DNA of 64,000 nucleotides from Paraspadella gotoi. Lineage: Eukaryota > Animalia > Chaetognatha. The position numbers and the translations under genes are program-made. Below the pieces are notes generated by a model. That model was not told where the DNA came from. It was given only the letters and a program-made list of their open reading frames with translations, and searched no databases. Location: positions 22,521,058 through 22,585,057 of the forward strand of contig CM119265.1 of the NCBI GenBank assembly GCA_051294375.1, in the 5' to 3' direction. Shown here in pieces: positions 6,201-63,786 of the stretch; the stretch's first letter is position 1, and the number at the start of each line of letters is the position of its first letter.

Positions 6201-6323
6201 TCCGTCGTTGCGCGCCCCTCCTTTTTGGATTTTTTTCCCCCCGTTTTTTATCAACCACAAAACTCCCCCTACCGATCTCTTGGTGTTTCGACGCTATTAC
6301 CTACTCTTTCTCTNNNNNNNNNN

Positions 6324-6358
<35 letters not shown>

Positions 6359-8641: not shown

Positions 8642-19031
<10,390 letters not shown>

Positions 19032-24085: not shown

Positions 24086-24711
24086 TCGTCTTGCAATCGA
24101 CTATTTTTTTTTTCAGTTTTATGACGAAGTTATCGTTTAAGTTTTACACTTTCGCAACACGAAATATCTCACTAAAGTTTTTTCCGTTCGATTTTCTTTT
24201 TTTAAAACCAAATGCGTTTTTTTTCCTACGTGATTCGTTACTTGTATAAAAAAGCATGACTTTATTTTCAGATGTATTAATTTACTGTACATCCCTGACA
24301 GAGGGATGTTAATTTGACTCGCGTAATGGGGAACTGTATTTTTCGTGGTTTTTACGTCATTAGATGGGCATTAAAGATAATCAAATAAGTTGGGGAAATG
24401 GTTGCGGCCCAAAAACTAAAGAGCTACAGCAGGCTCCAGGCACCGCTACTCTTCTGCAACGGTGGACGAGCGGATCGATCGCGTGCTTCCCTCGATCCGC
24501 ATATGACGAGAAAAGAGGCTAATGCCTCGTTAACTTTTGAATTTTCGCTAAGACCCATCCGGAAATAGATGGAGAGGCAGCGCGCGCTTCTTCGCTGGTT
24601 CGCGTGTTCGTCGTCCGGCAGACCGTCCGGCGAAAGAGCGACGACAATTTTTGAAGGACACGGCACCATCAAATAAACGAAAACTGCACTCCTCGACTCC
24701 TATCCGCTGTC

Positions 24712-30436: not shown

Positions 30437-30471
<35 letters not shown>

Positions 30472-33400
30472 TATACACGCATTGTTTGTTTGTTTGTTTT
30501 TGTTTGTTTTACTTACTGTGAATCACTTATCGCGTCAATGAATGACTCTCATTGCAACAATGAATGACTATCATTGCATCAGTGAATGACTATCATTGCA
30601 TCAGTGAATGACTATCATTGCATCAGTGAATGACTATCATTGCATCAGTGAATGACTATAATCGCATCAGTGAATGACTATCATCGCATCAATCATTTGG
30701 TAATCATCGCATCAATCATTTGGTTATCATTGCATTAATCATTTGGTTATCATCGCATCAATCATTTGGTTATCATCGCATCAGTGAATGACTATCATCG
30801 CATCAGTGAATGACTATCATCGCATCAATCATTTGATTCTCATCGCATCAATCATTTGGTTATCATCGCATCAATCATCAATTGTTTTTTTGAAATAATG
30901 GATATTGGATAATTTTGTACATGCCATGCTTTATTTATTTTAGGCCATTGCCTGCGACATCGAATGGCCAAACGATCCGAGCCATCCCAACGCCCCCAAT
31001 GATCCAGACGACGTGGCCCGTGACTTGATCGAAGGTCTTCTCCAACAAGACCCACGAGATCGATTCGGGGTCGAAGAAGTCAAGAGGCATCAGTTCTTTT
31101 ATGACCTCGACTTTCTTACACTATTGAGGCAAAAGGTAACACAAGTGAAAACGATTAGTGATTAATGATTAATTGACATTTTCCTGAAAACTGGACAACT
31201 TCTTCAGGCCCAGTGGATCCCCGAGATCGAAGGCGAGGAGGACACGAGTTACTTCGACACTCGACAAGATCGTTACGATCACTCGACCACTTTGCAGTCG
31301 GGGGAGGAGAAGGAAGCGGAAGAGGAGGTTGGCGACGCCCTCTTCGCTGCCTTCAACACTTGTTCTCCTCGTTACAGCGTCACCGGCGGTCACGCCTTCT
31401 CCAGGTACGGATGCTTAGCAAATTGTTTTTTACTAAAATCTAAGAGAAAATGTTTCGCTTTATTCATTCCTCCTCGCATTCTTTTTATCTCCTCAAGACA
31501 CTCCTCCGCTGAGGGCGGCGATTTACGCGGCCGTAAACCCTCCTCGTCCTCGCGGTGCTCGTCTTTTTGCTCGGACGTCTCGACGTCCGACCTGTCGACG
31601 GGCGCTTCGTCAGCATCTCCTGTTTCCCACCTCCTCGACTCCCCGGCCGCTTCGCCCCGTGTCCCTTTCCTATCTCGCTCTTCTCTCAGCGCCACCTCGG
31701 TTCTTTCCCAAGAGACCTCCAACGCATCCAAGACGAGCGAAGGGCCTCACTACCGGGTCTCCTTCACAGGCGACTTCGAGGATAGTGACGATTCTTCTAA
31801 CAACAACAACGTCCTTGCAAATTCCAACAACAGCAACAACAATCACATCAACGCCGTTTTCCGTGAGACCGACAACGGCATCAAACCTTTGATCGGCGTT
31901 GTTTCGGCCGATGGCGTCCCGACGCCGCTGGTCGAGAAGTCGACACCGGCGCCGATTTCCGCCTCCGATCTCAAAGCCACATCAGCGCGCGCTTCGTCCT
32001 TCGCGTTTTCCTCTCCCACCTCCTCCTCCCACGTGACCCCCGCGTCGCCGTCATCCTCGGTCGCGAGGATGGCGACCGAGGCGGATTCCTTCAAACTCAT
32101 CACGGCCTCGAAAGGGTCGAGCGGCGGCGCGGATCCTCACCGCCTCAATCAGAGTTCGTCGTTTTCTCTGACGTCGACGTCGTCAACTTCGTCGTCGTCG
32201 TCTTCTTACAAATCGGTGCCCGAGTCGAATAGCAGAGACGATATCCCCTCGACCAACCTGCCTCGCTTCTCCATATCAGTGGAGGACGGTCCCAAGAGTC
32301 CCATCAATCTTAAAGAGTTGTCGCCGGTCGAAGAACACGAGGACAAAGAGAAAGAGTTGGACTTTGGAGATGACGACGACGACGATGAGGACGATGTCGC
32401 CGGCGAGTTGGGACGCGACGGCGATGAAGGTGACGTCGATCCGGACAGCTCGTTGGAGGTGGAGCCGTTCGACTACCGATCCTCGGGAACGTTGAAGAAG
32501 TCGCACGAAGGCAGCGCCAAGGAGACCGTCGTCGTTCGACGACGCAAGGACGCAATTCTCGGACAAGGTTCTCCAAACGGGAAGACCTTCGTGCCGATTG
32601 ATCGGGATCGAGAGAATTCTCCGTCGTCGGCGTCGAAGCAAACGCAGCAGCAGCAAGAGGATCGACTTCAGCAAAGGGATGGAGCCGTGCCTCCGCCGCC
32701 GCTCACTTTGTGCATCCCGGCCAGAGGTGGTCCGGCCTTGACCTCCGACGAACCCGCGATGATGATATCGCCTCCGGCAACCGCCTCGATCGCCGGGCAG
32801 CCCCTGAAAATGTCGGGGGTTTTAGCCGAAACGATTCCTTCTCCGATCAGCAGCGTCACTTCCTCCCGCGACACCTCGCCCACCCGCAGCGGGCCATTGT
32901 CGTCGAGTGAGTCAAAACAAGCGTTTCTGTTTTTAATTTCGAACTCTTCATTTAATGTTTTTTTCCCCAGCCGCCTCTCCCCATCACTCGCAAACTTACA
33001 ATCTAGTCAAACCTCCAATCGTTATCAAGAGAGGACCGAGAGGCTTAGGTTTCACCATGCGCGCAATCAGGGTTTACAACTACGACTCTCCCCTTACGGG
33101 TAAAGAATGGAATTTGCCGAACCAAGACAACTCCAGAAAGACCAAAAAAGAAAAAAAACTACGTATAATAATAAGAACAAATATAATGATAATCAATTTA
33201 AATTTTCACACCCATCCTTAACTCCAGGTTCTCGCGGCGCGGTTCCCGGTTCCGCCCATTCCCGCAAAGGATTGGATCAGTCGTACACGATGCAGCACGT
33301 CGTTATGTCCGTGACCGAGAACGGACCCGCTCACGAAGCCGGCCTTCAAAAGGGCGACCTCATCACTCATATCAACAGCGAGAAAATTAAAGGTTTTTAA

Positions 33401-36400
33401 CAATTCAATTATTTTTGCTTGGCAATTCGCTTTTCCGCATTTAACCGTCAATTAAATTTCCTCGCAGGTCTTTTGCACACCGAGGTGGTGCAGTGCATTT
33501 TGAGCGGATCAAAACTGGTTAAGATCAACGCCGTGCCCTTGGATCAGACGTCGATCCGCACGTTGCCGAGACGCAAAGGTCGTGAACATCGCGCGAGCGG
33601 CGGCGGCGCGCACGGTGAGGACTAAGGACGGAAAATTTCTATGCTGTTTGACATTTACGCGTGGGAAGTTTGCGAGAACTTTTTCGGTTATTTCAGGAAT
33701 CGGCATGACGAGGTTAAGCGCCAACATTCATAGAGAGCACGGTCATCGTAGAAAGCATTCCAGGACGCACAGGTGCACTGTCCGACAAACTACATAGTAC
33801 AAATTATTATTATTGTTATTATCATCATCATCATACGTTCATTATCAACTTATTTCGACATTTTTTCAGTCACGAAAAATCAAGCGAGAAGAAGAAAAAT
33901 CGCAGTTCGCTCTTGCGCCAACTCACGAGCAAAAGCGGTAAGGCGGCGGCGGCGGCGCAGCTGCATGGTCAGAGTTCGATGTCGAGCAGCTACCACGGCG
34001 GCTCTTCACTTCCGCAGGTGGATATAAAGCACATATATAAAACAAGAACGGTATTTCCACTGTGTTGCGCCACAGTGACTTTATTTCACATGTATTTCCC
34101 TTTGATCACATGATATGACTTGACATGACATGACTAAAAAACTTTATTCGCCCATGTATTTATGACTTGCACTGCACCAAAATTATCAATCAATTATCAA
34201 ATGATATGCATTTTTAACATAAATAGGACAGACTGACAGACCGACCGAAAAGTGGCTTATAGAGTTGCTCCGCGAGTACTCGCGGCGCAACTAAAAAGAA
34301 CACGCATCGCAACTATCAATTTGCACATGCATTCTTGTTCTAGAAATCTGTTATATCAGGAATGTTCTCTCATTGACTGAATTTTTTCTCCTCTCTTCCA
34401 GCTCATATGCAACGACCACAACTACGCCCAGTCGCCGAACATCGGCAGTTCCCCGCCGTTGCCGCCGGGCGGAGGCAGTAGCAGCGTTCCGCCGTCTCGA
34501 AGTTTCACCTCGTTGAGCTTTCGGTCTTTGTCGTCCGGCAGCGAAAGTCTCGGCTCTGCAGGCGCCGGATCACCCGGTGCCGCCGGCGCTAAGTCGCCCA
34601 AATCCCCGCCGATTCACGCCCACGGAAAACGGGGCCGATCTCTGGGAGGATTGAATGGTAGGGATTTAAATTTCTAAAATGGATTTAAAAAAGAAGTAGG
34701 AACATTTGATGTTCATTTTTGTTGTTCAGATTCTTCCTCTCCGGGGAGTTCACAAGGTTCCCCGTCTTCTTCGGTCCCTAATTCGCCGAACGTCATCGGC
34801 GCTACGACGCATCTCGGCGGAGTTCTGCACGCCGCCGTCGACAACTCCGGTGGAGCAGGTTCGCTCGCGAAATATGTTGGCGCGAAAGTTGTCTTTGTGA
34901 TGGTTTCTTTTTCTTTTTGCATTGTGGCGTGTTTTCCAGTTCTGGCTAGCAGATCCAAGACCATACTCTTCACGATCTTGCGCGCTTTGTTGCAGATGAA
35001 AGTGTCACCAGGTCCGGGATATTTTCAAATATTTTTTACATTATTGTTGCATACTGTTCGTTTCCATATGTTTCGAAGTCGGTATTAGGTTTAGAATCGT
35101 TAAAAAGCCACGTTTCAAATTCATCCGCCACTCTTTCGTTGTTGCCCAACTTTTCCGATTATCTTTTGTTTAAACCGATCTCCCCTCTCCTCACCCTCCC
35201 ACCCGCCGGCCTCCTCTGCTCTTATTCGATTGAAGGAGCGATCGGTGCCGCGTCGTCTTCTGGTGCTGCCCCATCCGCTTTTCAACGGCCCTCGACTCTC
35301 GTCGGCCTCAAGAAACAATTGGCGAAAACGATCGGGGCGACGCGAGGATCTCCTCAGCAGAGGCGAACCTCCGTGGGTAAGTTATGGATGATAGCTGCTT
35401 GAATTAATTTATTTTGATAAATTTTAAATCCCCCTAGGTGGACACGCCATGCCTTTGTCCCCTCTCGCGCGAACGCCTTCGCCTTCTCCCATCGCTACAT
35501 CACCTACAAGGTCCCCCTCGCCGTTGACACTGGGACACGCGGCCGGAAGTAGCAACATGACCCAGACTTACCAACCCTCTACTCACGGACCCAATTCAGG
35601 TAGCCCTCTGTTCTCACGAATGCTTTTTGTTAATAATATAAGTATCAATTTAGATAATATTTGATATTATAATGGCTAGACATCTCGCCTCATCCTCGTG
35701 GCGAGCGCGGCCACCATCATCATCTGCATTATCCTCATTATCCGAGCGGAAGTGGGACTTCGACGGCCGTCGCCTTTTCCCCTCACAGCAAGCAAAGATT
35801 TATGGCCGGTAGACCCAAGAGTTATTCTGGAGGACCTTCAGCAGGTTCGTAAGTTCTGGTATGGATGTTAATGACTTGAAACAAACTTACCCTCCCGCTC
35901 CCGCTTTCAGGTGTTAGTGGTAGCCACTCTGTCGACGGGATCGAAAGTCCTGGGAATTCGGGGGGCGCCATTCGTCAACACTCGGCGTCGGCGGCGACAG
36001 GTAACGGCGGGTCGCCGTTGCTAAGGCGCGCGCTGTCGCCCGATCGTCTTCATCCGCAGCTCGATCTCCAGAGAAGCCACTCATCGCCCGCCAATTCTGG
36101 CGGGTCGGCTTCAGGCAAGTATTTTGACGTTTCCAATTATGCTAAATGTATTATTCGTTTAATGTTTCGTTTTTGTTGTTTCCACTTTGTTATTTTGTCG
36201 TTCCTCCTGCGATCAAATGTTTGTTTAACTTTGCTTATCTGGGCAATGGGCATCCTACTTTTGCTGATCTAAACTATTTTTTCGCCCCTCGCATGTAGTC
36301 AGTTTCAGTTCGCATCCTTTTGTATATATTTTAAGCAAACTGTATTAAATTGTGCTTTTGTTTTCGAAATTTTCCTGGCTTCTCCACAGGCGTTGATATT

Positions 36401-39400
36401 GACCCATACCAGTTTCATTCCGGCGGCGTCAGGGGAAGTCATTTCCGAGCGTTTCATCCGCCTTTCCGCAGATCGACCGGTAACGAAACGTCTAGACTTC
36501 CATGCTACGCAGTAACCGGCATTGGGCGATTTCGGACAATAATCTCTTGTCTGTTTGCTCCCTGTCACAGATGCATGTTTGATTTACGCACGCGTTTTAA
36601 TATCATTTTTTCCTCACATTAATAAATATATTTCGCACTTCATTCTAAAAAAAAATTAATCGTTCACCATGTACATCTATTTGATCTAGGTGACAGTCCT
36701 GTCGGCGTTCCTCGATCGTCGGCGCTTTCACCGGGCGGAAGTCACACCACTTCCCCAAAGCGACTCCATCATGGTACGGGAAGCGGGCATCAGCCTGTCG
36801 GCGCCGGTCAACCTCTCCTTCAAGTTGGCGGCGGCGGCGGCCCGTCTTCGCTGATGCGAAATTCTGATCATATCGGTCAGAACGAGCGGGGCGATTTCAA
36901 GGCAAGGAGCAAGAGTCCCGGACTCAAGCTGAAGATCGGGCCGCCGGTCGGAAGTCAAGGTACGCGAGCTTTAATCTACAGAGGGCATCATATTATAAAA
37001 TGTGGTACTGTGGCAGCAAGACTTAAAGCTGCCTCACTGCTGTCCGTCCTCAGCCTCGTCTCAATGGCTGAGCAGGCTAAATCATCTCATTCCATCCGTG
37101 CGTCCCGGGTTCAATCCCTGGGTATCCCGGTTGTGACCAGAATCTGTTCCCACCAAACTACCCGATCGAATTTCATGAAATTTTACATATAGAGTCCTAA
37201 TGACCATATAAATGGAACTATCGAAGCGAATTTTGATATTCAACCCATGACAAGAGATACAGGGCCCTGGTGCTGGACCCTCGGGGGCCAAAAAAGGCTA
37301 AAATATTTTTTTATTTTTTATAATTTTTTAGTAGCATCAGGTTCATCGATGTCTTAAACATATAAAAATCTTTTTTAAAACTAAAATTGATAAATATTTT
37401 GCTAATTAATCGGTGTTTGAAGATGCATGGTTCGGTTTTTTTTTTCGTTTTTTTTTTCTCCCAATTTTCCCGCATTATTCCAAAACCGCTGGTGTTCATG
37501 AAGCTGAAACTTAAAGTTAAATTAATATTTTTGTGGTAATAAATACATTTTTGTGGAATAGTAAACGACTGTGCAACTGTTCAAAACAAAAAAATTAAAA
37601 AGTTAGAAAAACAATTTTTTCACATTTTTTGCCCCTATTATTTGCCCCCTCCTGGGGGCTGGGGCCCATATCTCGGCTCAGGGGTCAAATATTGAAATTC
37701 GCCTCGTTCATAACAAATTTCATTAAAATCTATTCAGTAGTTTTCTCGGAACGTGTTCTGGTCACAAAAAAGGGTTACCTCATTTTATAATATGAAGTCT
37801 TCTGTAATGACTAATGTGTTCGTTTTTATTTCGTTTTTATTTCGCCAGACGGGCGAATGCCCAACTTGGGTTTCTGCGTCTTTTGACCGTAGTCGTCATC
37901 GTCGTCACGCTGTTTTAACATTGAAAATAGCTCAAGTTTGTAACCATAAGAAGCTGAAAATTTAGATATGGTTTCTCATCATTGAGGTCTTTTAAATTGT
38001 TATGTTTCATATTCCTACACTCATTTGTTTGTTTTATTTAAATAAATTTAAATAAAAATCGTTGTTAAATCTCTCTTCAAACTTTGTTCTAAATCAAATC
38101 ACAACGAAACAGAAAGGAAAAAAACACAATGTTTTATTTACAAAATAATTTTTATATATATGAAATTGATACAACCAATATAAAAACGAGTTCAGCTTTG
38201 CAGCGGCTGTACTAGAATAATTAAAGTTAAACTAACAATTATGATAATTAAATCATTAATTATTTAGCTAATAATTGAACCACAAACAAACATGATCATT
38301 TACCCGGGCCTTAGGGCGGTTTATAAATTTTTTTTTTCTCAAATTTTATTTTTTTTAGTATCAAAATTTGTTGTCAACCCAGATTTTTCTTTTGTTTTTC
38401 GTTTGCTCAGACTTAGTCTGTTTGTTTGTTTGTTGATGATCATTGTACTGAATCAACCTTGTTGTATTCGAATAAAATCGCATATATTATTTGGTTAGCA
38501 TCGTATCAATTATTTGGTTAGCATCATATCCATCGTTTGGTTATCATCGCATCAATATTTGGTTATCATCGCATCCATCATTTGGTTATCATCGCATCAA
38601 TATTTGGTTGTCATCGCATCAATTCTTTGGTTATTATCACATCAATCCTTTGGTTATCATCGCATTATTCCTTTGGTTATTATCTCATCAATCCTTTGGT
38701 TATCATCGCATCAATATGTGGTTATCATCGAATCAATAATCAATTACTATTACATCAATCAATCAATTATTATTACATCAATCAATTACTATTACATAAA
38801 TAATTCATTATCGCATCAATCATTCGGTTTTTTTTAGGATTTTTTCATTAATTTTCTTTGATAGTAACGTCTGGCCAGATCACTATACTTTTAAGATTTT
38901 TTTATTTAACTTTAGGGTTAAAACTTATTTAATAATATATCTTCAAAAAATCTCACCTTATGGTTGAATACATATTTCAGGCGACAGCGATTCACGTGCA
39001 TCTGACAACTATAACGATGCGTTCGAACTACACGGCCGCGCGATTCCTCTCTCTACGCGTCCTGTTAACGCTCCTCGCGACGGGACTCAAGCCCAGTCGC
39101 ACTCGTCGCAACTTCTGCAGCATCAAATGCTGCACTTGCAGCTGTCTGGTACCCGATCTTCGCCACAGCGCCAGCGCGTCCGCAGTGAACCAAGCGGAGA
39201 CTCTTGCGTTTTTGGCCCCGTGGAAGAAAAAACGCCCCCTTCCCGGGCTTGCCCCTCTACGCCGCCCCCACCGCCCCCTCCTCGATCGCCCACCCCTCCG
39301 CCGCCGCCCCCGCGGACGCATTCAGCCTCACCCGGCGCGGCGAGGGAGAGCAGGAGAGAATTAGTGAGGTCAAAGGTGAGAGAATTTGAAGGTCAAAACA

Positions 39401-40884
39401 TGAAACATTCCAATGAGTCTCTCAAGTTTTGTCCTGGTTTTATTTGATTTATTATTGATTTATTATTCGATTACTTTAATATTAGTAATGTAATAAAAAT
39501 TAATCATGTTTGTAATTTGGAGTTATTCTGACACAAAAAAAATATCCGTTTTTACTCAGAAAGTGACATCTGAATCGGCGAGTCCCAGTCCAAACCGAGG
39601 CAAGTCGGACACGCCCAGATCCCGGGGCGCCTCTCCCGCCATCCCACCGCGCTCCTCATCCATCCAGTCTCGAGAAGCAGGCACGGCTCCGCAGTCGCGA
39701 CCCGGTCACGGCGTCGTCGCTCCGCCCTCTTCGATCGCCACTTCGACTCGATCCTCGCCGCAACCGATTCCCGCCCCTCCCCCGCCTCCCGCACCCGTTC
39801 TCACCCACAAACAACAGTTTCAGCGACACAGCTGCCCACCCGGAACTCTGAACAGGTTCGGGCGGGTTGTCGGCACTAGTCGCAATATCGAGTTGTATTT
39901 AATTGATTTGAATTTGATTTCATTTATTTGATAAACGTGATTCAGAGAGTATGTTACTGATTGCGACGATCTTGTAACGCTTTTGCGCATAAGTGGCGTA
40001 GTCGTCGTCGGCGTTCCAACTTATCGATCGCCTTTTTGATGATTAAATTTGGGTGTATGAAGCTGGAAATTTATATACAGCTTCTCATCATCGAAATTAT
40101 CAAAACAAACAAATTTCCTTTATTATTTTTATGTCTCCTTCTCTCTCTCTTTTCTCTTTTAATTATATGTAGCTCTCTCTCTCTTTTCCCCCCAGGCTGA
40201 TTCATCGAGAAAAAAAACGCTTTTTCTTTTTCTCTTTTCTCCTGCTGCTTCTGCTGCTGCCTTTTGATATCTTTCTTTTTTTCTGGCTGCCTCTGCTCCG
40301 CTGCTGATTCGTCCGAAAACGATTTGGCTTCTCTCTCTCTCTCTCTTAAATCAAATCTCTCTCTCTCTCTCTTTCTTCCTCTCTTTTTTTTTCTCAGGGG
40401 CTGCGTCTGCTGATCAGTTCATTTCTGAAACTGTAACTTTAATTTTCCTCGGTACTTTATTTTTTTTTTAATTGACAATTGCAAAATCGAATTTTTCTTT
40501 CTCTTTATAAATTTTTTTTTTTTTCAAATTTTATTTTTTTTTATTATCAAAATTTGTCGTCAATCCAGATTTTTCTTATGCAATTGCGACGATCCTTATG
40601 CTTTTAAGATTTTTTTTTTAAATTTCAGGCAGGACAGCTCATCGCCAGACATCGGACGCGGCAGGCCCGTTCTAGAATGCGGTTCGAGTCAAGGCAGCGA
40701 TTGCGGTGACGGAAGCGTTGGCAGCGTCATCAGCGTTGGGGTCGGCGTTACCTTCCGGCGTCCTCGAAGTCAACAAGATTCCGTGAGATCGGGAAGCGGA
40801 GAGTTTTCCAGTTTGGAAACGGAAGCCGACGCCGCCAAGAGGCTCTCCTTTCAAGAGAAGAGGCAGTTCTTCGAATCCCTTTGA
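24712..40884 (+). CDS. MAST: Microtubule-associated Ser/Thr kinase (MAST): SAM-like - DUF1908 - AGC kinase - PDZ, ~24 exons
   Basis: DUF1908 motifs [39 protein letters not shown] and [20 protein letters not shown]. Kinase [15 protein letters not shown]...HRDIKPDN...[12 protein letters not shown]...[23 protein letters not shown] (exon 29402-30333). AGC tail [22 protein letters not shown]...[12 protein letters not shown]. Also [19 protein letters not shown] and [14 protein letters not shown]. Stop TGA at 40882-40884. Confidence 0.93.
27106..27660 (+). mobile_element. HINE family A copy (5' subTIR eroded) in a MAST intron
   Basis: Contains cagcagatc...tctataatccac, agaacttcaaattat and (GTCC)n, with 3' gtttgctcaaactt, all matching the 17897 copy. 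Confidence 0.72.
30382..30890 (+). repeat. HINE family B fragment with a 22/23-bp tandem array
   Basis: Starts aaaaacgagttcagctctgcagcggctg (shared with 38182 and 58281). Tandem units agtgaatgactatcattgcatc and aatcatttggttatcatcgcatc span 30537-30877. Confidence 0.75.
34040..34297 (-). mobile_element. HINE family C, short complete copy
   Basis: The minus strand reads tttttagttgcgccgcgagtactcgcggagcaactctataagccac, then (GTCG/GTCT)n, and ends ggcgcaac...cttgttt. This is the same architecture as family A with a different subTIR. Confidence 0.7.
36979..37804. mobile_element. TA-flanked MITE with long imperfect inverted arms (Tc1/mariner-like ends)
   Basis: TA|CAGAGGGCATCATATTATAAAATGTGGTA ... 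TACCTCATTTTATAATATGAAGTCTTCTG|TA. Internal inverted matches: 37131-37190 vs 37710-37770 and 37220-37295 vs 37640-37706. Confidence 0.72.
38182..38903 (+). mobile_element. HINE family B derivative with a 23-bp tandem array (38483-38830)
   Basis: Shares aaaaacgagttcagct, tatcaaaatttgttgtcaacccagatttttc and the terminal cttttaagattttt with other copies. The array unit tttggttatcatcgcatcaat is the same as at 30700. Confidence 0.68.
39960..40620 (+). mobile_element. HINE family B copy in the last MAST intron
   Basis: ttgcgacgat...ttttgcgcataagtggcgtagtcgtcgtc ... 3' attgcgacgatccttatgcttttaagattttt. Near-identical to 49757 and 57948. Confidence 0.78.
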
Positions 40885-42320: not shown

Positions 42321-45300
42321 ATGGATCTCGTGCCTCGTTTGTCAAAAGGTTTTGAGAATTCGGGAATCACAGGTGGGTGTGATGTGTAGTGTTTTATAAA
42401 TTGTGATAGTTGTGATATTGATGTTTAAATCGGTAGTAAAAAATATCGGCATTAAGTCTTGTTGTCTTACTTCGCCATTTCGCGCGTTTAATAGATCTCG
42501 ACTCAAGCGAGTTCAATTTTTATGATTAGTCAGGTTTTACATAATCCTTGGGAATTTGGTCTCCAGAGCACACGTCATTCAACTGCCATCATCCGAAGGC
42601 CGAGACCCCTCAAGTCCTCAATATTAGCTGCCCCTCTGCTTCGGTCGATGTCAATTCGATCAACCAGAAAAATCAAGGAGCCAAGATTAAAATTGTTCAA
42701 GGAGTTTATGGAATTTCCACTTATCCAGGTCAGTGGAAAGTTACTGAAGTTTAATCTCTACATAATCATTTAAGGGACAAGGACACCCTCTGATGTTGTG
42801 CTCGTTGTATGACTAATTGACTATTGACTAGTAAAGCGTAGTAAAAATTTCAAAATCAATTAGAATCAAAATTCGTGAAACCTGTGAACATGTCTTTAAT
42901 CTACAGGAGTAATTTAAGGGTGGTTTAGGGGTAGTTAAGGTTAGTGGCGTTTAGGTTAATTAGGTAATATTTTTTACTATTTTTTTATCTCGTCAGACGG
43001 GCCCGTCCTGGGCGAGATTTAGATTTTACAAGACAGCGTGGACGCAACCGAGCCTTTTATTGTTATCGTTTATAACCTTGTTGAAGAATAAATCATTCTT
43101 ACTCTGAAACTTGTTGCGTCCACAACAGTTCATAATAGACTATTCCAATATTGATCAGCAACTTTTAATACGCCTTAATGACTAGGTATTCGGTGCTATT
43201 ACCACCATGGAGATTGTTTTATCGACGACATCGGCAGTTTAAAAGATTGCAGCGGAAAACGAAATTGCCAAATAACCGTCGATAGAAGGTACGGATTCTC
43301 CATATCAGCCGATGTTTTCGAGTCGTCAACATTAATAATCTCTTTAAAAAATTTTGTTGAAAAAAAGGTATCTGGGTCACAAATGCGGCGGAAAATCGTT
43401 TTCCAACTATTTGATGGTCGCCTATCAATGCATTCCCGCTGCTTCCATCCACAACATTTGCGAGAGTTCCTACCACATTTCTGTCTACAACGGTTTTATC
43501 ATCTCCCCCGGTTATCCGAGTCCTTATTACAAAGGCGAGTCTTTAGCTCTTTAATCCGTTACGCGCACGCGCAATAAATGACGTTGACAACGGAAACGCT
43601 AACGCTCTTCCCTCCATCTTCAGACATCAACTGCCAGTGCAACGTCTCCACTTCCGACGGCGGGCTGTTGTTCCGCGTGGTCGATTTCAGCACAACCGCT
43701 CTTAATTGCCAGCACGACTACGTGGCCGTTCATACCACGCGCAAGATAGAGAAGTTTTGCGGAGAGTATCCCTTGGGAACCTTTTACAGGTTGGTTTACC
43801 CCTTTTTTGTTTTGATTATTAAAGGATGTTAAATGATTTTTTTTTTCAGAACTCGTGAGAGACAAGTTTCGCTTCAATTCATCACCAAATTGTCCGCTCG
43901 TGGATTTTGGCTCGAATACAAAGCGCGATCAAGTAGGTCTTCTCTCTCCTTTTTTTATTTTTAACTTTGTTTTGGTTCTTTCGTTTCGTTGTGTTGTGTT
44001 GGGTTGTGTTGTGTTGTGTTGGTAGCATTAAAGGAGAAAAGTTTTTTTTAATTTTGAACAATGAATTTATTTTGCATGAAAAATGGACGTTTCGGCTTCA
44101 ATGTAAGCCTTCATCAGCGCAAAGTGAGTGTCCATTTTTCATGCTAAATAAATTCGTTGTTCAAAATTAAAAAAACTTTTCTCCTTAAATATTTTTAACT
44201 TAAAACTTTTTTAAATGATTTTAGGCAAAAGTCTTCTTACTTTGGCCTGCGCCTCTCTCTCCGCCCCTACCGACCCATCCGCCTCCACGACAAGACTTCC
44301 GACCTGGCGCTCTGACGCCAGCGCGCCCGACGCCGCCTCCTCGAACGCGTCAACTTCATCCGCGTTTCCCCTCGAAAACTCTTCTGTCAAACACCCTACG
44401 GGCGTCGTGAGCGACAAAAGCAGCTTCGAACGCGACGCCGTCCTCGTTGACGATTCCGTTGTCTCCTCCAAGGGCCGCACTCCCTCGCAACCCGTCGTCC
44501 CGACCAAGTCGCGGTCTTGTCCGTACTGGGAGGTCGGCTGCGGCGACGAGGAGGTTGTCGTGGACGGACTGTTGCAGGACGAGTCGGGCGACGACGATTT
44601 TGTCGGCGCCGGACGTCGTATCGGTCAAATATCCACGATTCTTATCGTCGTCGGCGTCTCGGCCTTTGTCGTCTTTTTCGTAGTCTTCGCTGTGGCGTAC
44701 CGGAAACGTCAGAGTGGTCTGGTCCGTAACGCCGACGAGGATCCGCCCTCTTCCGGTGATTTTTCATTTACGACCTCGGACGCACAAGTTCATAAATTCA
44801 ATCACAGTTTTCCTTTGTTTGCAGACAACGGCGGCCTGGGATCCTTTTATCGCGGCGCCAAACTCAGCCTCGATTCCATCAATTCTGCCTGCGAGTGGAA
44901 CGGCGTTAAAACAACGGGCGCCTATAACGTCAAGTCGCGTCCACTTGATGCGGTCGGACCTGGCGGATCGACCCAATCGTTGGAGGAGTGGGGTCACGTC
45001 GACGATTTCGGCCTCTCACCGGCAGGGCCGGGCACCGAACCACGGAAGACCAATTTTTATCGTTCGAGGAGCTTCACCATGCTCGACCACGTCGCGCAGG
45101 TATGAGTTTTGCGATGATGACGTTGGAGTAAAGTAAAGTAAAGTAAGGCACATACTAAAAAGTAAACGTAAAAGCAAGAAAACCAAACATGAAATGTCTT
45201 TAAAAAAGTCCGTAATATGAGTTCGTGAATCGCAGTGAACGGAGGTAGACGATCCTGTTGGAGATAAGGTATAGACGTCATCGTAACCGTAACAAAAGAA

Positions 45301-48300
45301 AGCATTTTCGTTGAAAGATTTAAATTTTTAGTCGGATCTGCTTATCAGCAGATCCCGACTCTATAATCCACTTTGTCGGTCCGCCCCCTCAATCATGTCG
45401 GGCATTAAATTATATGTCAGAACATCGAATTATGATACATTATGCAAAAGAAATGTCCGTCCGTCTGTCTGTCAGTCTGTCTTTGTATGTATGTCCATTG
45501 TCCATCCCACCTTAGCAAAAAACTCCAATTACTTGTGATTGAATGGACGGATTGGAATGAAATTTTGTGTGAGGGTAGGAAAGTGTGTGTCTGACTCAGA
45601 GCTGGATATGAAGTCTGTCTCTGAGCTGGATATGAAGTTTCGATGGAATTGTGCGAGTGGAATAGAATTCAAATGGAAAAAATAAAAAAATAAATTTCAC
45701 TATTTGAATGCCAATTACTCATGAGTGGATGGGGCGATTGACTTTAAATTTTGTATGTGGGTAGGAAAGTGTGTGATTAAGCTGGAAATAAAGTTTCGAT
45801 GGAATTGTGGAAATGAGTTTAAATGAAAAAAACAAAAAAAACCTGTTTCACTAATTGATTATGCTTGTTTTTCTTTTTATATTAAATGTAAATGCAAGAT
45901 GTAATAATTAATAGAATAATTAATCAGTTAATAAATCAATTGTCAATTAATTAATCAATAATTAATTAATCAGTCAATAATTAATCATTTAATTATTCAA
46001 TCAATTTATTTATCTATTAAATAATTAAATCAATCAATTAATTTAACAATTAATTATTTAATAAATCAATCAATCAAGTCAATCATTATCGGCATTATTG
46101 TCGTCGTCGCCATCAACGTCGTCGTTGCTTTTGTTTCTGGTCAGTGACGAAAAGACCTAAAAACAAACATTTTGGGTCAAATTAATAAATTAATTAATTG
46201 CCTAATTAATTAACATGAATTCTATCATGTAGTTCTGCGCCCTACAACTAAGTGAAGCATCTGCTCTCCAAACGCGACATCTCCCGAGAGAAAAACGAAG
46301 AGGAAAACTCCTCTTCCCCGCCTTCTCTTCCCCTCCGTACGCTACCCAGTACGCCGACACGAGACAGAATCACTTCTTCTGTTCGCGCCTTTGCGCTCAG
46401 TCTCCCGGCTTTTTTACGAAAATATTTTTTGATTATTTTTGTTAAATAATTTTGCATATTTTTGTTTCTCTTTTTTTTGGAGTTCAGAATACAGATATTC
46501 TTCAACACGTGGCTTTTTTGAAGTTCTCTCTCTACGGCCGCCATCTTTTTCGTCTTCGTTGTGCGTGGCTTCGGAGGAAGAGCCTTGACTCGGCCCTTTC
46601 GCTTGCCCTCGACGCACCCTGCGCGGCTGCGGAGGGAAGAGCCGCGACTCGGCCCTCTCGTTTGCCCTCGGCGCTTAGTACGGCTGCAGGGGGGAAGAAC
46701 CTTGTTTCGGCCCCCTTGTTTGTCCAGTGCTCTGTTTTTTGGACTGAGGCGCGTGTTTTCAACTCGACTACCCTCATGTCTCTTCCGCCGCCGCCTTCGC
46801 CGCCGCTCCCACCGCCGCTCCACCGCCTCCACCATCAGCCATTCGGGCTTTTCTGGTCAGGCCGAAGTCATGCCCCTTCAGATGGAGGCAGTTCTACTCC
46901 AAATTAGCAACGCTTTTCTAGCGTTCGTCGCGAATTTAAGGAGTTTCGCCGCTCGTCTCGTTCCGAGTTGGAGAGTCTTCGGCGGTGAGTACTTCTTTCT
47001 TTTCGTTTTGGTTTTTCGCCTTTTTTTGGCGTACATTCGGCGTACAGAGGGGTTTTCCTCCTGTGCCCCACCTAACTCGATTTGTTTGTTTGTTTTTTGT
47101 CGGGCCTTCGCCTGGTCTTGTTACAGGCTCACTTGTGGTGGGGAAGAACTACATGATAGAATTTTTGGTTCCTTATGGAACCGGGATTCTTCATGGTTCT
47201 TCCCCACCAACAACCACCCACCGTCCACCCCTGGCACCACCGGTGGTGGAGGGCGGCTCAGGCTCGCTTGTCTTGTTTGGTGGGTGTTTTTTGGGGTTCC
47301 TTTTTTGAGATTGTCATTTTTCAATGATTTCTCTTTTTTTCCATGTACGTTTTCTTCATGGTTCTTGGACGCCTCTGTTCGCCATTTCGCCGTTCTTCGT
47401 CGATCTTCGTTTGTTCGCCAGCGACTTGGAGTCTTCGCGTTCTTTGGCGGCCTCTTCGCGGCGGATCGGCCTTGCGCTCCGAGCGGGTGACTGCGTCACG
47501 CCTTCCTCGTCGAGCCCCGTCTGCGCAAGTCGACGACGACGCCTCCGTTTCCGGATCAGAGGAGGGTTCCTCCTCTGAAGAGTCTGCTGGGGTTTTGACA
47601 ACTTCTTGTCTCGTCGTGCTTCTATACAGCCTTCGGAGTGGGTCCTGCAGCAGTGGAAGGATTTGCGCAGAGTTGGCCAGGACGACGTTCTTTTACCGTC
47701 GTGGGACGTGCTTTCCGCCAATACGCGTTTCCGGCGCTGGTCGGATGTTTCTTCGCCGGCGGAGTTTCGTCCTCCTGCTCAAGAGAGTTGCCTTGCCGCT
47801 CAGTTCGACGCCGTTCGGAAGGACTCCAAGACGACGCGCGCTTTCAAGGCTTTTGAGCGCATCATGAGGGACGCCGGAGCGTCCGCTCATGCTGTCCTTT
47901 CTGTCGCTGACGCTCTCCGCCTCATGGTTGAGGCCCTACGCTCGGAGGGGCCCGGTGCAGTGGACGCAGGCCACCTTGACGATCTTGCCAAGCCCCTTGG
48001 AGACGCCTCGTCGGGTTTGGCGGCGATTTTTGGTTCGGCCCTCTCCGAGTCTCGGCGCTTAGTTGTCGACGCTGCCCCTTCGGATCTCAAGACAGTTCTG
48101 TCCAGTTCTCCGCCCTCCACGTCGTTCTTTTTCGGAGACCGCTCCACAGACGTCACTCAAGCGTTCCATTCTTCGCTTCTCCGCTCCGGGGCGCCACACA
48201 ATTGCGCCTGTTCTGCTAGCCGCAAGCGTGGGCGTGGCAGTCCGCGTAGTCCCGCTCGCCGTCCTACGGCCTCGCAAGTCTTCGCCGCCTCCCAAGCGTA

Positions 48301-49122
48301 GGGCGGGGCTCCAGGGACGTCTAAGGACGCCGACTGATCGCCCGACAGCTCTTTCGCCGTTGCCTCGTCCGGCCGTCAGGTTCTCCAGGCCCGGCTTTCG
48401 TCCATGGACTGGTTTTTTGCGGTTTCTCATCCCCCCCTTCTACGACGTCCGGTCAAGTGGGCGTGGCACGTCACCGGAAGTCTTCGCGGGATTCCCCCTC
48501 TTGGTTTGCTTGGCTACGAGTGATTCTGTCTCGTGTCGGCGTCTGAGGAGCGTACGGAGGGGGAAGAGAAGGCGGGGAAGAGGAGTTTTCCTCTTCGTTT
48601 TTCTCTCGGAGATGTCGCGTTTGGAGAGCAGATGCTCACTTGTTGGTGGGGAAGAACAATGAAGAATCCCGGTTCCATAAGGAACCAAAAATTAATTTTT
48701 TAATTAATTACCGCTAATGATCGTGGGCAGATCCGACATTGTTTGCCCAAACTTGTTAGAAATCGTTCCTTTTGGTTAAAACTGAGTCTAAAATAGTGAT
48801 TTCCACTCCTAACCTCCTTAATCCTTTCTCCTTTCTCCTTCCACCATCACAATGCAACTTTCGTTTCCTTCAGGTGTCTCCTTACGCACCAATTCCGGAG
48901 ATCGAACTCTCTCGCAGCCCCGAGGGTCTCGTGCGGGTCGGGATGATGCCCACCCTCAGTTCCCTCCATTACGGCGACTACGGCGTCTTGGCCGTGTCGC
49001 CGTTCCCGCCTCCCGCCGCCGCGCCCCTCCCAGAACCTTCGCCCGTCACCATCCTGACCTCGTCGCCGGTACTCACCTCCAATCTCGACTCTTCTCCTCA
49101 AGTCTCGCCGGACATGAAATGA
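42321..49122 (+). CDS. single-pass membrane protein with SUEL/galactose-binding-lectin-like and CUB domains (5' end uncertain)
   Basis: Exons ~42321-42372, 42567-42728, 43186-43288, 43369-43534, 43624-43789, 43850-43935, 44225-45099 and 48874-49122. Lectin-like: LNISCP...IKIVQGVYG...CSGKRNCQITV...CGG...YLMVAYQC. CUB: C...NGFIISPGYPSPY..DINCQC...CQHDYV...KFCG...RGFWLEY. These are followed by a Ser/Thr-rich stalk and the TM segment ILIVVGVSAFVVFFVVFAVAY-RKRQ. No clear signal peptide was found. Confidence 0.75.
46219..48693 (+). mobile_element. non-autonomous DIRS1-like (tyrosine-recombinase retrotransposon) element with ITRs, ICR and a gag-like ORF
   Basis: ~140-bp ITRs (46232-46374 and 48519-48657), with unique outer extensions and ATT at both termini. 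Internal region 47127-47213 is the reverse complement of the joined right-end/left-end junction. No RT/RNaseH motifs are visible. Confidence 0.85.
47606..48301 (+). pseudogene. gag-like ORF (probably 5'-degraded) of the DIRS-like element
   Basis: 231-codon helical-looking ORF ending ...ESRRLVV...LKTVLSSSPPSTSFFFG followed by a basic tail. It resembles, from memory, the RR...L..P....LFG C-terminal pattern of DIRS1 ORF1/gag. Confidence 0.5.
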
Positions 49123-50523: not shown

Positions 50524-53149
50524 ATGACAAAAGCCCACGTGGATACGCGGACGGAATTAGCAGAGCTTGTTAAAAGAAAGCATGACATTGCCGGTGAATT
50601 AGTAGTGGTTATTTATACTCGAGGAAATCAACATTCCATTACTTTCTCAAATTATCTTTAACCCCGTCTCTGGCTTTCCAGAGACTCTGGCAAATTTGGA
50701 GCGTCAAATCTACGCGTTCGAAGGAAGTTACTTGGAAGACACGCAGCAATACGGAAATATCATTCGAGGATGGGACAGGTATTTGACCAGCAATCGCAGT
50801 ACCAACAGCAAACAGGACAAGAAGAACCGCAAGTTCAAGGAGGCGGATCGGCTTTTTTCAAAGTCCTCCATCACTTCCGCCGGTGCCGTCGCTGGCCTTC
50901 CTGGCGTCGGCTCGGGTTAGTTTAATGAGAAGACATTTGTTGTTAAGGCTTGTTGTAAAGGCGTGCTCGCTGCAAGTCAAGAAGTTGCTTGAATGAAATA
51001 TGGGAAGTGAGAGTTATACTTTTAGAGTTTTCTTTTTCTTTTTATTAAATTGAATAATTTTTAACATAATTTTGTCATAAATGGTAAGAACTGAATCATT
51101 AAACCAGAACAAAATGGTTGCTATTTCTTCAATAAATTTTTATTAAATCAAGTTAAAAAATAAAATGAACAAGGTAAGTGGTTAATTTTAAAAAGAATGA
51201 ATACTGCATTATAAAAGCTCTCTTGCTTAAAAAATGAGGTTGTTTCTTACTGTCTTGCATCGAAGGAAACGATTTAAAAGATTATTTAATCAATATTATA
51301 AAAATATGTATTAAATATTGAAAAATATATAATCTAATAATTTTTTGTAAAAAAGTAATAACAAATTTTTTTACCAATTTATGTAATTTAATGAATTTAA
51401 GTTTTTCAACCCAGTATAAGAGCAGTAAGCTCTTATTAACGGACAGTACCATTTAGAAACACTGAATGTTTTGACTTCGATTAAAGCGTTTCGATCTGTC
51501 TTACTTCCATTTAGGATCTGACAGTCGGGAGATGTCGCCGGCGTTGGACGACTCCGCCTCAGAAACCAACGTCGATCAGAACGCCAATCAAAAGCCGTCC
51601 TTTAACGGTCCTCCCGGTTAAACGTTTTCCTTTTAAATTTTTAGTCAGATCTGCTTATCGCAGATTCCGACTCTACAATCCACTTTGTCGGTCCGTCGGT
51701 CCACCCCCCAAATCTTGTCGGTAATTCATTTTGATCATATCAGAACATCGAATTATGATAAATTATGCAAAAAAAAACGATTTCCGTCCAACCGTCCGTC
51801 CTCCCCCCGTAGCAAAAAACTCTCATTACTCGTGATTGGATTGTTGGATTGTAATGAAATTTTGTGTGGGGGTAGGAAAGTGTGTGATTGAATAGAATAT
51901 AAAGTTTTGATGGAATCGTACGAATTTTGTGTGTGGGTAGGAAAGTGTGTGTCATTTTTTCAACTTGCATCTTTTTTTAACTCGCATCATTTTTTTCAAA
52001 CTCGCATCATTTTTTCAATCGCATCATTTTTTTAACTTACATCATTTTTTATTTTTGCATCATAACTTGCATCATTTTTCAACTTGCATCATTTTTTCAT
52101 CCATTAATTAATCAATTAATTAAAACATTTATGAGTAAGCATAAATAATAAAAATTCAAGTCAACTTGACTTTGGTTTTTTCCATTTAAACTCATTTCCA
52201 CTCGCACGATTCCATCTAAACTTTATACCCAGCTTTATCACACACTTTCCTACCCACATACAAAATTTAATCTCAATCTATCCATCCAATTATGATATAT
52301 CGATAATATGGTTAAAATTAGTAAAAAGATTTAAGTTAATGTGACTTTTGTTATGTACAGACAGACGGACTTTGTTTTTTTTGCTTAATTTAGCATAATA
52401 TGATGTTCTGATGTGATAAAAATGATTTACCAACAAGATTTAGGGGTGGGACCGACGGACCAACAAAGTCAATTATAGAGTTGGAATCTGCTGATTTGAG
52501 TTGAAAAAATTATGCAAGTTCAAAAATTAATGCGAGTTAAAAAAATGGAGCGAGTTAAAAAAAGAATACAAGATAAAAAATGAGGCGAGTTTAAAAAATG
52601 AGGTAAGTTGAAAAAATAATAATAGATAAAGAAAATATTTGTACTTTATTTATAATTATTTCTACCATACTAACAGTTCAGTTTAATCCCTTGCAAGCGA
52701 TTTACATGTATGGTACAATCTGTTATGATCAGTTAGGATCACAAATTGAAAAAATTATCGTGATTGATTATCTAATTAGCTGATTACCACTTAATTATGG
52801 GAGGCAGATCCGACATAGTTTGCTCAAACTTGTTTTCTTTTAATTAGCTAATTTGTATTGAGTTTGTGCTGCATTTTTGTTGGTTTATAGAATTGGACAA
52901 TTCTGAAGCGGGTAGCCTCAGCGAGGACCAATCAAGAAAAACTCAGGAAGATGGCCCCAGTGGAGGTACTATAGATGTTTTATATCTTTTTTGCTTCTCC
53001 GAAATTAAACACCTAATTTTTAAGATTTTCCCAAATTATTACCAGTTGCTGGTAATTCTGATGGCTCTTTACACAGCGTTCAAAATGGTAAAATTCACAA
53101 GCGTCACAACAGTCAAAACAAACTCAAAAACAAAAAGCGATACAGATGA
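50524..53149 (+). CDS. MEAF6: Chromatin modification-related protein MEAF6/Eaf6 (NuA4/MYST complexes), 5 exons
   Basis: [52 protein letters not shown]...[17 protein letters not shown]. Exons ~50524-50593, 50682-50915, 51516-51616, 52891-52965 and 53046-53149. Confidence 0.95.
51638..52835 (+). mobile_element. HINE family A copy with an internal inverted duplication
   Basis: Normal 5' and 3' ends. 52170-52495 is the reverse complement of the element's own 5' part, and catcatttttt-type repeats occur in both orientations. Confidence 0.75.
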
Positions 53150-58965: not shown

Positions 58966-58968
58966 CTA

Positions 58969-61900
58969 CAGGTAACTCTTTTTCTTTACTCGATAAAACT
59001 GGAGGGAGCGATATCTCCCAAAACTAGGAGTGTAATAGCTCAGCCGTTAGTAATGGATGGCAGGAAGGTTAGTTTGTGCCCCATTGGAGGATTTTTAAAA
59101 AAAAATTCAAAAAATATGCGCTCAGCCCTAAAAAAATTTTTTTACAATATTGCTTAGCAGCAGTATTAATGAAGCTTGCCCATATTTTTGACATAAATAC
59201 TCCTAGAACGAGACCTAACCATAATGATGTAATAAAAATTTTTGAATTAATTATTTATTTTTGGTTAATAATTAATTTAGTTCACATAATAATTTTAAAA
59301 GTATCTGAAAATATCCAAGGTAAATTGATTCTTTTTTTAACAAAATGATACATGAAACAGAGCAGTTTTAATAGTAAAAAATAAAATTTTAAAAATTATT
59401 TTAATCACCAAAAATATTTTTGCAATATTATAAAATAATATCTCATAGCTCTTAACACTAATTAAACATATTTAAAACTTATAAAGTGGTTGAAAGCGGA
59501 CTCATTGCTGATTCCAAATCTTATTTTGTTTTTAAACTTTGATTTTTGTTCCTTGTTTTACAGTCTCATCATCATTTTGTAAAAAATTGAAGAAATCGTC
59601 CTCTTTCAACCTTTATAAAAATGATTGGGTCCACTTGTGCTGGAAAAATATTTAAAGTTAATCTTTAAAAATGTCTTAATATCTACTTGCTATCAAAATT
59701 TTAATAGTGAGAAGAGATAGATCTTTGCCCCAAACCGATTCTCGAACGTGGATAAATGTCACCTTATTATATTTTTATGAAAAAAAAGAATAAGATTTTT
59801 TCTTAATAGGCACAATATTGCTAGTCATTCTCTCATGGCAACGCATAAGCGCGTCATGATTGGCTGTCTTGAACTGCTGGCAGAAATGCTCTTTCACTAG
59901 GGATTTAAGTGAAGTTGAGTCATCTTAAATGTAGTTTTGCAATATTGAGGACAACCTCACAACATTTTGAGTTCACCTATCTTTTCTTACTAACATGAAC
60001 AACCAAAGCTCAGCGTCTCTAATGCAGACTAAAGAGTAGAACTTTCCATATTGAAAAGTTTTAAATCAAAACGTTGTGTAAAATGGTGCCCATTTATCAT
60101 ATGAATTTTTGAACATTTGTTTTCAAAAAAAAAATTACAGTTAAATGGGCGGCCAACTCTGAACACAACAATGAAAAAAGGTAAAAGAATTTACTATTGT
60201 TCATAAATATCTTTCTAAAGATTATATTACTACAGGGACGAAACCAATCTATCTGTAGAGCGGAAAAAACTTGGACGATGTTTACTACCTCGCATTAATA
60301 ATTAAGTTATTTTTTTACCAACTTAATTTTTTAACCTATTTTTAGTTTGATAATCTTTTAAAAAATGATATTTTTAACATGTTTGTGAAGATTTAAAAAA
60401 AAATTATGCTCATTGAATAGAGAGAATAATTTCTTTGTTTTGCTAAAAGAATTAAAAAAAAAGATTAGTGTTAAAAAAACTTTTAAATTGTAAAAAAAAA
60501 TTACTTACCTTAATAATTATTTTTATTAATTAGGTTTAACTAACGTTAAAAAAGAAAGGGAATGCACTTTTCTTAGAGAAAATGTACTTATGTTTTTTCC
60601 ACTTTAATACTCATTTCACTGCACATTCGGTCAAAATTTATATCTAGCTTTTCACACACTTTCCTACCGCTCCACAAAATTTATCTCTAATCATTATGGG
60701 TTAAATAAGTCAAAAAGATTCAAGTAAATAGACTTCATATGTCTTTTTCATTTAAACTCATTTCCACTCGTACGTTTCCAACGAACTTTATCAAGCATTC
60801 GTTACACATTTTCTACCCACACACAAAAATTTGAATCAATCTATCCATCCAGATTATGATTAATTAGATTACTTATGGTTAAATTAAGTAAAAATATTTT
60901 AGTTAAAATGCACTTGATGTTTTTTCCACTAGAACTCAGTTCACTCACACGTTCCGTCGAAACTTTATATCCCAGCTTATCACCTCACTTCCTACCCACA
61001 CACAAAATATTCATTTCAATCAACCAGCCAATCACGTAAGTTATTGGGCTTTTTGCTAAGTGGACGATGGACGGATGATTGCACTGTATTAATTATTTAT
61101 GATAATTTAATTGACTAATTGATTAATTACACTGATTATTATTTCGATTTTATATACATCTCTGCATTAACATTAATATGAAAGGGAAAAAAGAACATAA
61201 TACAATGTAGCAAACAGGCTTTTTTGTTTTTCCATTAAAACTACATTTTCCACTCAAACGATTTTCCATCGAAACTTTGATTTCCTGTTGATCAACTCAT
61301 CCCTTTCTACCCAAATAAACAAAATTCAAGTTCAATCGCACCTCTATTCATGAGCAGATGGTGCTTCAAATAGTAATTAATTTTTTATGTCTTTTTCCAT
61401 TTAACACTCAATTTCCACACTTGGACGATATATACTCCAGACTTTCACTTTAATTCTCAATGCTCATATCATCACACTTCCCTACTACCACACAAAAACT
61501 TCCATTCAAATCCATCACATCCAACTCACGAAGTAATTGGTCCGTTTTTTTGTAAGGCTAGACGAGGGACGGAACGACGACGGACATACGTATGGACATC
61601 ATTTATTTGCATAGTTTGTCGATAAATTCGATCGCTTCTGACATGACTATAAGTCAGTGCCGACAAGTATTGAGGCGGCGCCGACACGACAAAGTGTAAT
61701 TATTAGAGTCTCGGGATCTGCTGTAAGCAGTATTCGACGAAAAACAAAAAAACAACAATATTTTTATGTCTCCTTCTCTCTTCTCTGTAAAGAATAGTCA
61801 TACGTTTACTGAATAGTTTATGCACTGCATATCGTACGAGCGTGCTTACGGCTCGGTCAAATTTTTTATTGAGGTGATCAGTTACTGAACCTTCACTACC

Positions 61901-63408: not shown

Positions 63409-63786
63409 TATTCTCTTCGTTTTCCTTTTCTTCTTTTATACCTCTTCCTTTCTGTCCTTCATTTCCTCTTTCTCTCTCTCTTCTCATTCTCTCTGTGTGT
63501 GTGGTCTCTCTCTTCCTTATCTTTTCTTTTCTCTCTCTCTCTCTCCATATCCTATCTTCTTTTCTGCTGCTCCCATTCCTGTGCTCTTCTCTCTTTCGCT
63601 CTGACATTTTTTTTTGGTCAGTTGAACTTTTGAACTCGTTGAGACATTGTGCTTCCTTTAGGCTGTTAATTTTTTTAATTTTCATTATTTTTGATGGCGT
63701 TTTTATCCCAAAAATATTAGGACATCCATTTCCCCGTATTTTAAGGAGGTTTTTTCGAAAAGTAGAATCAGGCAACTAAAGAATAA

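Follow-up and report, generated by a model that had tools for sequence, protein, structure and literature searches.

Organization of the element and its termini

The window analyzed here is a 64,000-nt stretch of the genome of the chaetognath Paraspadella gotoi (GenBank assembly GCA_051294375.1, contig CM119265.1, positions 22,521,058 to 22,585,057 of the forward strand), and all coordinates refer to it. Nested in an AT-rich repeat within the intron of a host gene lies a ~2.5-kb element that an initial annotation, made from the letters alone, had described as a small non-autonomous DIRS1-like element with all of its cis signals (Table 1). Our analysis supports that description. We find in addition that the internal complementary region (ICR), the segment complementary to both termini, falls within a predicted 437-nt intron of the first open reading frame (ORF1), and that the corresponding spliced joint is present in one contig of an RNA-like data set.

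The element begins and ends in ATT and carries inverted terminal repeats (ITRs), both as annotated. The conserved parts of the ITRs (46256-46374 and 48519-48636) are identical at 115 of 119 nt in an inverted-repeat alignment; we distinguish conserved from divergent ITR parts in the terms of Piednoel 2011 (PMC3266345). A 13-nt left extension had also been proposed, but over 46219-46254 the left end and the right terminus, read as its reverse complement, agree at 28 of 36 nt, so that this segment is divergent ITR, which shortens the right extension from the 36 nt first given to 26 nt (48668-48693). The hairpin in the right extension folds with a z of -2.27, and 4 of 200 shuffles fold equally well. 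The repeats are inverted, as in DIRS1 elements, and an NTT trinucleotide at both ends (ATT/ATT) and a right extension are likewise DIRS1 features; the direct long terminal repeats of TR-GAG elements are absent.

Table 1. Features of the element and its immediate surroundings (window coordinates).
Feature	Position	Strand	Remarks
Host-gene intron	45100-48873	+	3,774 nt; holds the AT-rich repeat and the element in sense; in-frame exon join
AT-rich host repeat with nested element	45325-48757	+	other copies lack the insertion
Element	46219-48693	+	~2.5 kb; ATT at start (46219) and end (48693)
Left terminus: ATT and divergent part of left ITR	46219-46255	+	complementary to left ICR
Conserved left ITR	46256-46374	+	matches reverse complement of 48519-48636
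Probable 5' untranslated region	46375-46775	+	59-bp tandem repeat at 46562-46732, ~3 copies
ORF1 (likely gag) exon 1	46776-46984	+	ATGs at 46776, 46870, 46882; GC 0.59, T 0.26
ORF1 intron	46985-47421	+	437 nt, GT-AG; in-frame TGA at the exon/intron junction, immediately at the donor
ICR	47127-47213	+	left ICR 47127-47162, right ICR 47160-47213, overlap at AAT; inside ORF1 intron
ORF1 exon 2	47422-48337	+	GC 0.62; stop TGA 48335-48337 when read through breaks
Coding-like tail	48338-48518	+	181 nt, GC 0.62
Right ITR	48519-48667	+	conserved 48519-48636; divergent 48637-48667
Right extension	48668-48693	+	26 nt; small hairpin 48670-48685; ATT end

The internal complementary region

As had been annotated, the 87-nt segment at 47127-47213 is the reverse complement of a circle junction, that is, of the right end followed by the left start with one common ATT. 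The complementarity reached a local score of 140, compared to a best of 27 among 300 shuffles, and the left part of the ICR by itself scored 43 (shuffle best 26). Between the right terminus and the right ICR, 53 of 54 nt agreed; the left terminus matched the reverse complement of the left ICR with its initial 18 nt exact. ICRs complementary to both termini that overlap by 3 bp at the junction are as expected of DIRS1 elements; the position is not, as the ICR is not at the 3' end beside the right ITR. It starts 908 nt from the left end, in agreement with the ~0.9 kb of the earlier description, and its distance to the right ITR is ~1,300 nt; the element sequence contains no second ICR near the right ITR. 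We rejected the idea that the sequence between the ITRs had been inverted, since the ICR retains the canonical complementary orientation. The ICR folds into one long hairpin (z -8.35), which we do not count as independent evidence because the symmetry of the ITRs alone forces such a hairpin.

Two further observations concern this region. Contig depth over 47134-47257 was ~10-30x that of neighboring bins in all four interior-read runs and was also well above the depth at the element termini; other families with a common ICR, or a palindrome artifact, possibly account for it. Directly 3' of the ICR, at 47217-47260, is a GC-rich hairpin with a perfect 14-nt palindrome whose folding does not exceed that of shuffles (z -1.2). 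In assembled contigs, a junction contig from an extrachromosomal circle would be indistinguishable from the ICR itself.

ORF1 and the remaining interior

ORF1 is the first ORF after the left ITR and the only long ORF of the element. The ICR had been placed upstream of gag, with the suggestion of a permuted gene order; we find it instead within the intron of ORF1, which starts ~250-350 nt upstream of the ICR. Unspliced, ORF1 meets a stop at codon 40. Spliced, it encodes 345 aa from the ATG at 46870 when single-base breaks are read as X, a frame that is backed by breaks listed in the reads, or 377 aa from the ATG at 46776, which requires one further, unconfirmed break. Exon 2 is a 300-codon open stretch. 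The predicted protein has a short, helical-looking N-terminal part that spans the exon join, a low-complexity linker rich in S, E, and D, a predicted helical core, and a basic tail rich in R, P, and S.

Database searches did not reveal what this protein is. For the ORF at 47579-48298, no homolog was found among proteins of 132-420 aa or 421-2000 aa, no match in metagenome or viral contigs, and no meaningful sequence match in PDB (best E 0.5). Pfam and NCBIfam gave sub-threshold noise for ORF1, in searches that cover remote homology in part. Single-sequence AlphaFold models had a predicted local distance difference test score of 42.6 and 41.7, and fold searches with these models, which are too poor for the purpose, returned generic helical hairpins (best Z 7.6) or nothing. 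ORF1 of vertebrate DIRS elements is related to LAP2alpha (PMC4495291); LAP2alpha was not among the listed fold matches, a result that excludes nothing. The similarity to DIRS gag implied by the first description thus appeared in no search, and ORF1 is likely gag by position. Gag-like ORFs of tyrosine recombinase (YR) retrotransposons diverge fast and so are often assigned in this way (PMC6681497).

No enzyme was detected elsewhere in the element. Among the 20 element ORFs scanned, none had a Pfam match to reverse transcriptase (RT), RNase H (RH), or methyltransferase (MT), in line with the earlier remark that no RT is visible, and no tyrosine recombinase family was matched in the Pfam and NCBIfam scans of the element. 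The pol and YR ORFs of autonomous DIRS1 elements are therefore missing, and with 181 nt from the stop of ORF1 to the right ITR there is no room for either. The region 46560-47000, earlier put forward on weak resemblance as possibly a decayed recombinase 3' end, consists of the 59-bp tandem repeat followed by ORF1 exon 1 and matched no recombinase family. The probable 5' untranslated region had no Pfam or NCBIfam match and folds no better than shuffles (z +1.05), and an Rfam scan gave 0 matches. The coding-like tail has no family match; judging by resemblance, it may be what is left of the beginning of a pol ORF that was deleted.

Splicing of ORF1

The splice sites were predicted from the sequence before the reads were compared with the element interior: the donor is GTGAGT at 46985, and the acceptor at 47421 links the upstream frame to the downstream ORF. 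A joint among the sequencing-run contigs (46983>47421, cut +1) skips 437 nt with GT..AG ends and matches the predicted pair exactly. Its depth was 26.8 in run X8 and 26.7 in run X9, and 0 in the DNA-like runs X4 and X6. The observed pair is one of 312 GT-AG pairs that enclose the start of the ICR, only 24 of which leave a long frame open, and from the donor at 46985 the sole acceptor among 18 that does so is 47421. Base composition also differs across the two sites: outside the ICR the intron has a T content of 0.40-0.45, compared to 0.25-0.26 in the exons, whose GC content is 0.59-0.62. A divergent copy with a deletion of 46954-47006 retains a GTGAG donor-like motif.

The host gene provided a means of judging whether a run resembles RNA. 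A 3,679-nt contig of X9 matches only from 48871, as the in-frame join of the host exons predicts; the match begins there because the upstream host exon and the host intron both end in CAG. DNA-like contigs of X3, in contrast, continue through 48730-49000. This suggests that X9 behaves as RNA. Run X1 is also RNA-like by the same host-exon test, with 5.16 observed and 5.15 predicted.

We also considered the ICR as a stop-bearing cassette exon. Use of a second possible acceptor, at 47126 and with a branch-point-like CCTAAC, would start an exon precisely with the ICR and lead to a stop after 48 codons, and a donor-like GTACGT lies downstream of the ICR at 47345. This candidate was rejected, as no such joint was present among the 15 of 18 joints listed.

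A family of variant copies and its genomic setting

Part of the stretch was contained in 10 of the 12 listed sequencing runs, nine of which are from one organism; the assembly may have been built from some of them. Six of the seven distinct runs compared (X1, X3, X4, X6, X8, and X9) cover all 30 bins, whereas X10, from a different organism, covers 7 of 30 with short pieces and was left out. The runs yielded 202 to 8,688 contigs each, with many alleles or variants and with relatives down to ~86% identity, including divergent ones at about 86-88%. No listed contig spans the entire element, and contig depth was not taken as copy number. Given full interior coverage in six runs with many variants, the element is a family rather than one broken copy. 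Two contigs of X1, one covering 46543-47136 and thus reaching the initial 10 nt of the ICR, the other covering 47184-47473 from the right ICR onward, indicate that the position of the ICR is not an assembly artifact of the window.

The insertion site could be compared with empty copies of the AT-rich repeat. In X3, many joints skip ~2.5 kb at the nested site. At 18501, an empty paralog of the repeat shows one GAATT in place of the GA-ATT...ATT-AA of the filled site, and the X3 joints are similar; these are diverged paralogs, not an empty allele of the locus. DIRS1-like elements insert into a matching trinucleotide and duplicate no further target sequence. Judged from a diverged paralog, the empty and filled sites would fit recombination at a trinucleotide.

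Further copies of the AT-rich repeat are at 17894-18581, 51632-51923, 61075-61744 (minus strand), 27112-27415, and 52115-52835. The repeat has a short hairpin on its 5' side and a small stem-loop on its 3' side, together with an 11-bp sub-terminal inverted repeat and a GTCY-type microsatellite; it resembles non-autonomous Helentron (HINE/DINE-1-like) elements. The last two exons of the host gene (44215-45099 and 48874-49122) encode a predicted transmembrane segment and have no Pfam match; the element lies in the last intron. Elsewhere in the window are a 1.3-kb inverted pair of 73% identity (58967-60258 and 62142-63410) and, at ~23000-39500, a multi-exon MAST-type kinase gene with SAM-like, kinase, and downstream exons. 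The kinase is 48-79% identical to at least 120 proteins; the named matches are from animals, and none listed is above 79%. Related tandem-repeat arrays occupy introns of this gene at 30518-30878 and 38477-38784.

Interpretation and alternatives

We interpret the element, with its ITRs, junction-complementary ICR, ATT ends, many variant copies, a spliced joint in one RNA-like data set, and neither pol nor recombinase, as probably a multi-copy, gag-only (likely gag), non-autonomous DIRS1-like retrotransposon whose ICR resides in a 437-nt ORF1 intron and that would be mobilized in trans by the RT and tyrosine recombinase of a helper. A transcript from the left ITR would have two fates. Spliced RNA would be translated into the ~345-377-aa ORF1 protein and, having lost the ICR, would be a dead end for replication. 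Unspliced RNA, with its stop at codon 40, would yield no full ORF1 protein, would keep the ICR, and would serve as the genome. The helper RT would copy this RNA, and the ICR would serve as template for the circle junction and for the ends still lacking; the helper recombinase would then insert the circle at an ATT, while Gag made from the spliced RNA would act in trans. Retroelements normally lose introns, spliced RNA being what is copied. This intron, however, would not be losable through retrotransposition, because an RNA without the ICR could not complete the cycle. Dictyostelium DIRS-1 without its ICR is transcribed and reverse transcribed but fails to finish retrotransposition; its RT, and probably the other proteins as well, can be supplied in trans (PMC7192593).

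Several observations weigh against this interpretation. The pairing of the left terminus with the ICR is imperfect (31 of 36 nt). ORF1 has no detectable homolog or fold in any search, and among the substitutions listed for exon 2, 6 of 17 are synonymous compared to 26% expected, some being private to the window, so that no purifying selection is shown. The window copy of ORF1 carries seven single-base breaks between 46870 and the stop; reads of the species fill them, yet no contig ties those bases to the locus, so that decay, and not faulty polishing, may account for the state of the window copy. The spliced joint is one contig whose short side is 28 nt, below the tool threshold of 31, and spliced depth is ~27 compared to ~600 unspliced, about 4%. 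The figures for X8 and X9 are almost the same, and the two runs are probably a single data set entered under two names; the library type of the runs is not on record, their RNA status being inferred, and X9 has a depth of 154 in bin 48812-48915, compared to 65 predicted from the spliced host contig by itself, which leaves other cover there to be explained. For X1, the listing holds 15 of 112 joints and does not cover the element joint. Finally, neither a helper element nor a circle or new insertion was seen in the available contigs.

Some of these points would suit an element that is a passenger, requiring nothing beyond its ITRs and ICR, with a decaying ORF1 and cryptic sites around the ICR that are rarely used. 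The low spliced depth, the synonymous fraction in exon 2, the breaks of the window copy, and the lack of an ORF1 homolog would all follow. We nevertheless consider such incidental splicing unlikely: the pair used is among the 24 of 312 that are in frame and brings exon 1 together with an exon 2 that is open for 300 codons, and each splice site coincides with an abrupt shift in composition. Moreover, at ~15 listed places, in coding as well as non-coding sequence, the runs carry single bases absent from the window, a pattern that suggests long-read assembly errors. It is very unlikely that the joint arose at the DNA level, as a deletion or as a retrocopy of spliced RNA in a DNA library. X8 is labeled "DNA?" and the type of library is not on record, but the ends are exactly GT..AG, the joint has a depth of 0 in X4 and X6, and X9 holds a contig like a spliced host mRNA; even a retrocopy would demonstrate splicing of the intron. 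The initial annotation had itself named what would overturn its reading: that the arrangement belongs to one canonical DIRS copy that is decayed or misassembled. The many single-base differences between window and reads and the lack of a listed contig across the entire element would be in keeping with this; it is nonetheless extremely improbable, as the interior is covered in six runs with many variants, some contigs run from the 5' region into the ICR and others from the right ICR into exon 2, and no second ICR is found near the right ITR.

A further question, compatible with the gag-only, intron-borne ICR interpretation, is where the layout came from. It may have been inherited from an autonomous DIRS lineage, the element having arisen by a single internal deletion of pol and YR; we hold this origin to be a serious possibility, just short of probable. 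One deletion suffices in this case, whereas a canonical parent would require both a deletion and a move of the ICR. The 181 nt after the ORF1 stop have a coding-like GC of 0.62, the ICR (36 + 54), right extension (26), and conserved ITR (~119) are within the range of full-length DIRS1 elements (Table 3 of PMC3266345), and divergent relatives at ~86-88% identity exist. Conversely, among the rows listed, no long loose end leaves the 3' end of ORF1 toward other sequence, and no partner was found in metagenome and viral collections, which are unlikely to include this animal; a search of metagenome contigs with a 26-nt pattern from the right end gave 0 matches. More tentatively, the whole DIRS lineage of this animal group, autonomous members included, could carry its ICR in a spliceosomal gag intron, with splicing as a switch between Gag mRNA and genome, the intron protecting itself, and the present family a gag-only satellite.

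If the interpretation holds, an intron would be kept by design because it contains an essential DIRS signal, and it would also sort RNA into messenger and genome. The ICR would be functional far from the right ITR, and DIRS Gag would act in trans. Short gag-only DIRS elements with a displaced ICR would escape screens that use RT, MT, and YR profiles.

Comparison with known systems

Spliceosomal introns reportedly occur in some DIRS/Ngaro elements, as Goodwin and Poulter (2004, Mol Biol Evol) are said to have described; to our knowledge, no ICR lies inside an intron of a YR retrotransposon. Among the titles and abstract openings surveyed, none reports an intron-borne ICR or a DIRS with gag as its sole gene, although such a description may have been published. 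The word "intron" is absent from the main text of PMC3266345, PMC6681497, PMC3783388, and bioRxiv 2021.08.05.455354, and the available portions of PMC5633606 and PMC5718144 contain nothing on ICRs in introns or gag-only DIRS. Gag-only non-autonomous LTR (long terminal repeat) retrotransposons (TR-GAG, PMC4350172) and spliced Gag mRNAs in Copia (PMC5580714) are already known.

The element is a non-autonomous DIRS1-like variant and not a canonical member, as three defining features (a 3' ICR, pol, and YR) are absent. Like Dictyostelium DIRS-1 and other DIRS1-like elements (PMC3266345), it has conserved and divergent ITR parts, a right extension, ATT ends, and two ICRs overlapping at the 3-bp junction, and the sizes of these parts are within the published range; a small 3'-end hairpin is also reported for DIRS-1 (PMC7192593). 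Published ICRs are at the 3' end near the right ITR (PMC3266345; Malicki et al., 2020, PMC7192593), whereas here the ICR is 1.3 kb upstream and in an intron. DIRS1-like elements in Table 3 of PMC3266345 are 3.8-6.3 kb long, compared to 2.5 kb here without pol (RT-RH-MT) or YR.

In content, the element resembles the non-autonomous TR-GAG LTR retrotransposons of plants (PMC4350172), which are likewise shorter than 4 kb and keep all cis signals and a single gag ORF without enzymes; the element here has one ORF and no pol in 2.5 kb, its gag identity being assigned by position. TR-GAG elements, however, have direct LTRs and a Copia/Gypsy Gag, in place of the DIRS ITR and ICR signals and spliced ORF1 seen here. 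The Arabidopsis Ty1/Copia element EVD likewise uses splicing to separate a Gag mRNA from full-length genomic RNA (PMC5580714). In Copia the short RNA arises by splicing and premature termination, and the full-length RNA is still coding, whereas here the intron breaks ORF1 near its start and contains a replication signal that is essential in DIRS-1. SIRE, a derivative of VIPER, is likewise a non-autonomous descendant of a tyrosine recombinase retrotransposon; it is ~0.4 kb long, belongs to the split-direct-repeat group, and is described as two terminal pieces, one 5' and one 3', joined by a short internal stretch (PMC6681497).

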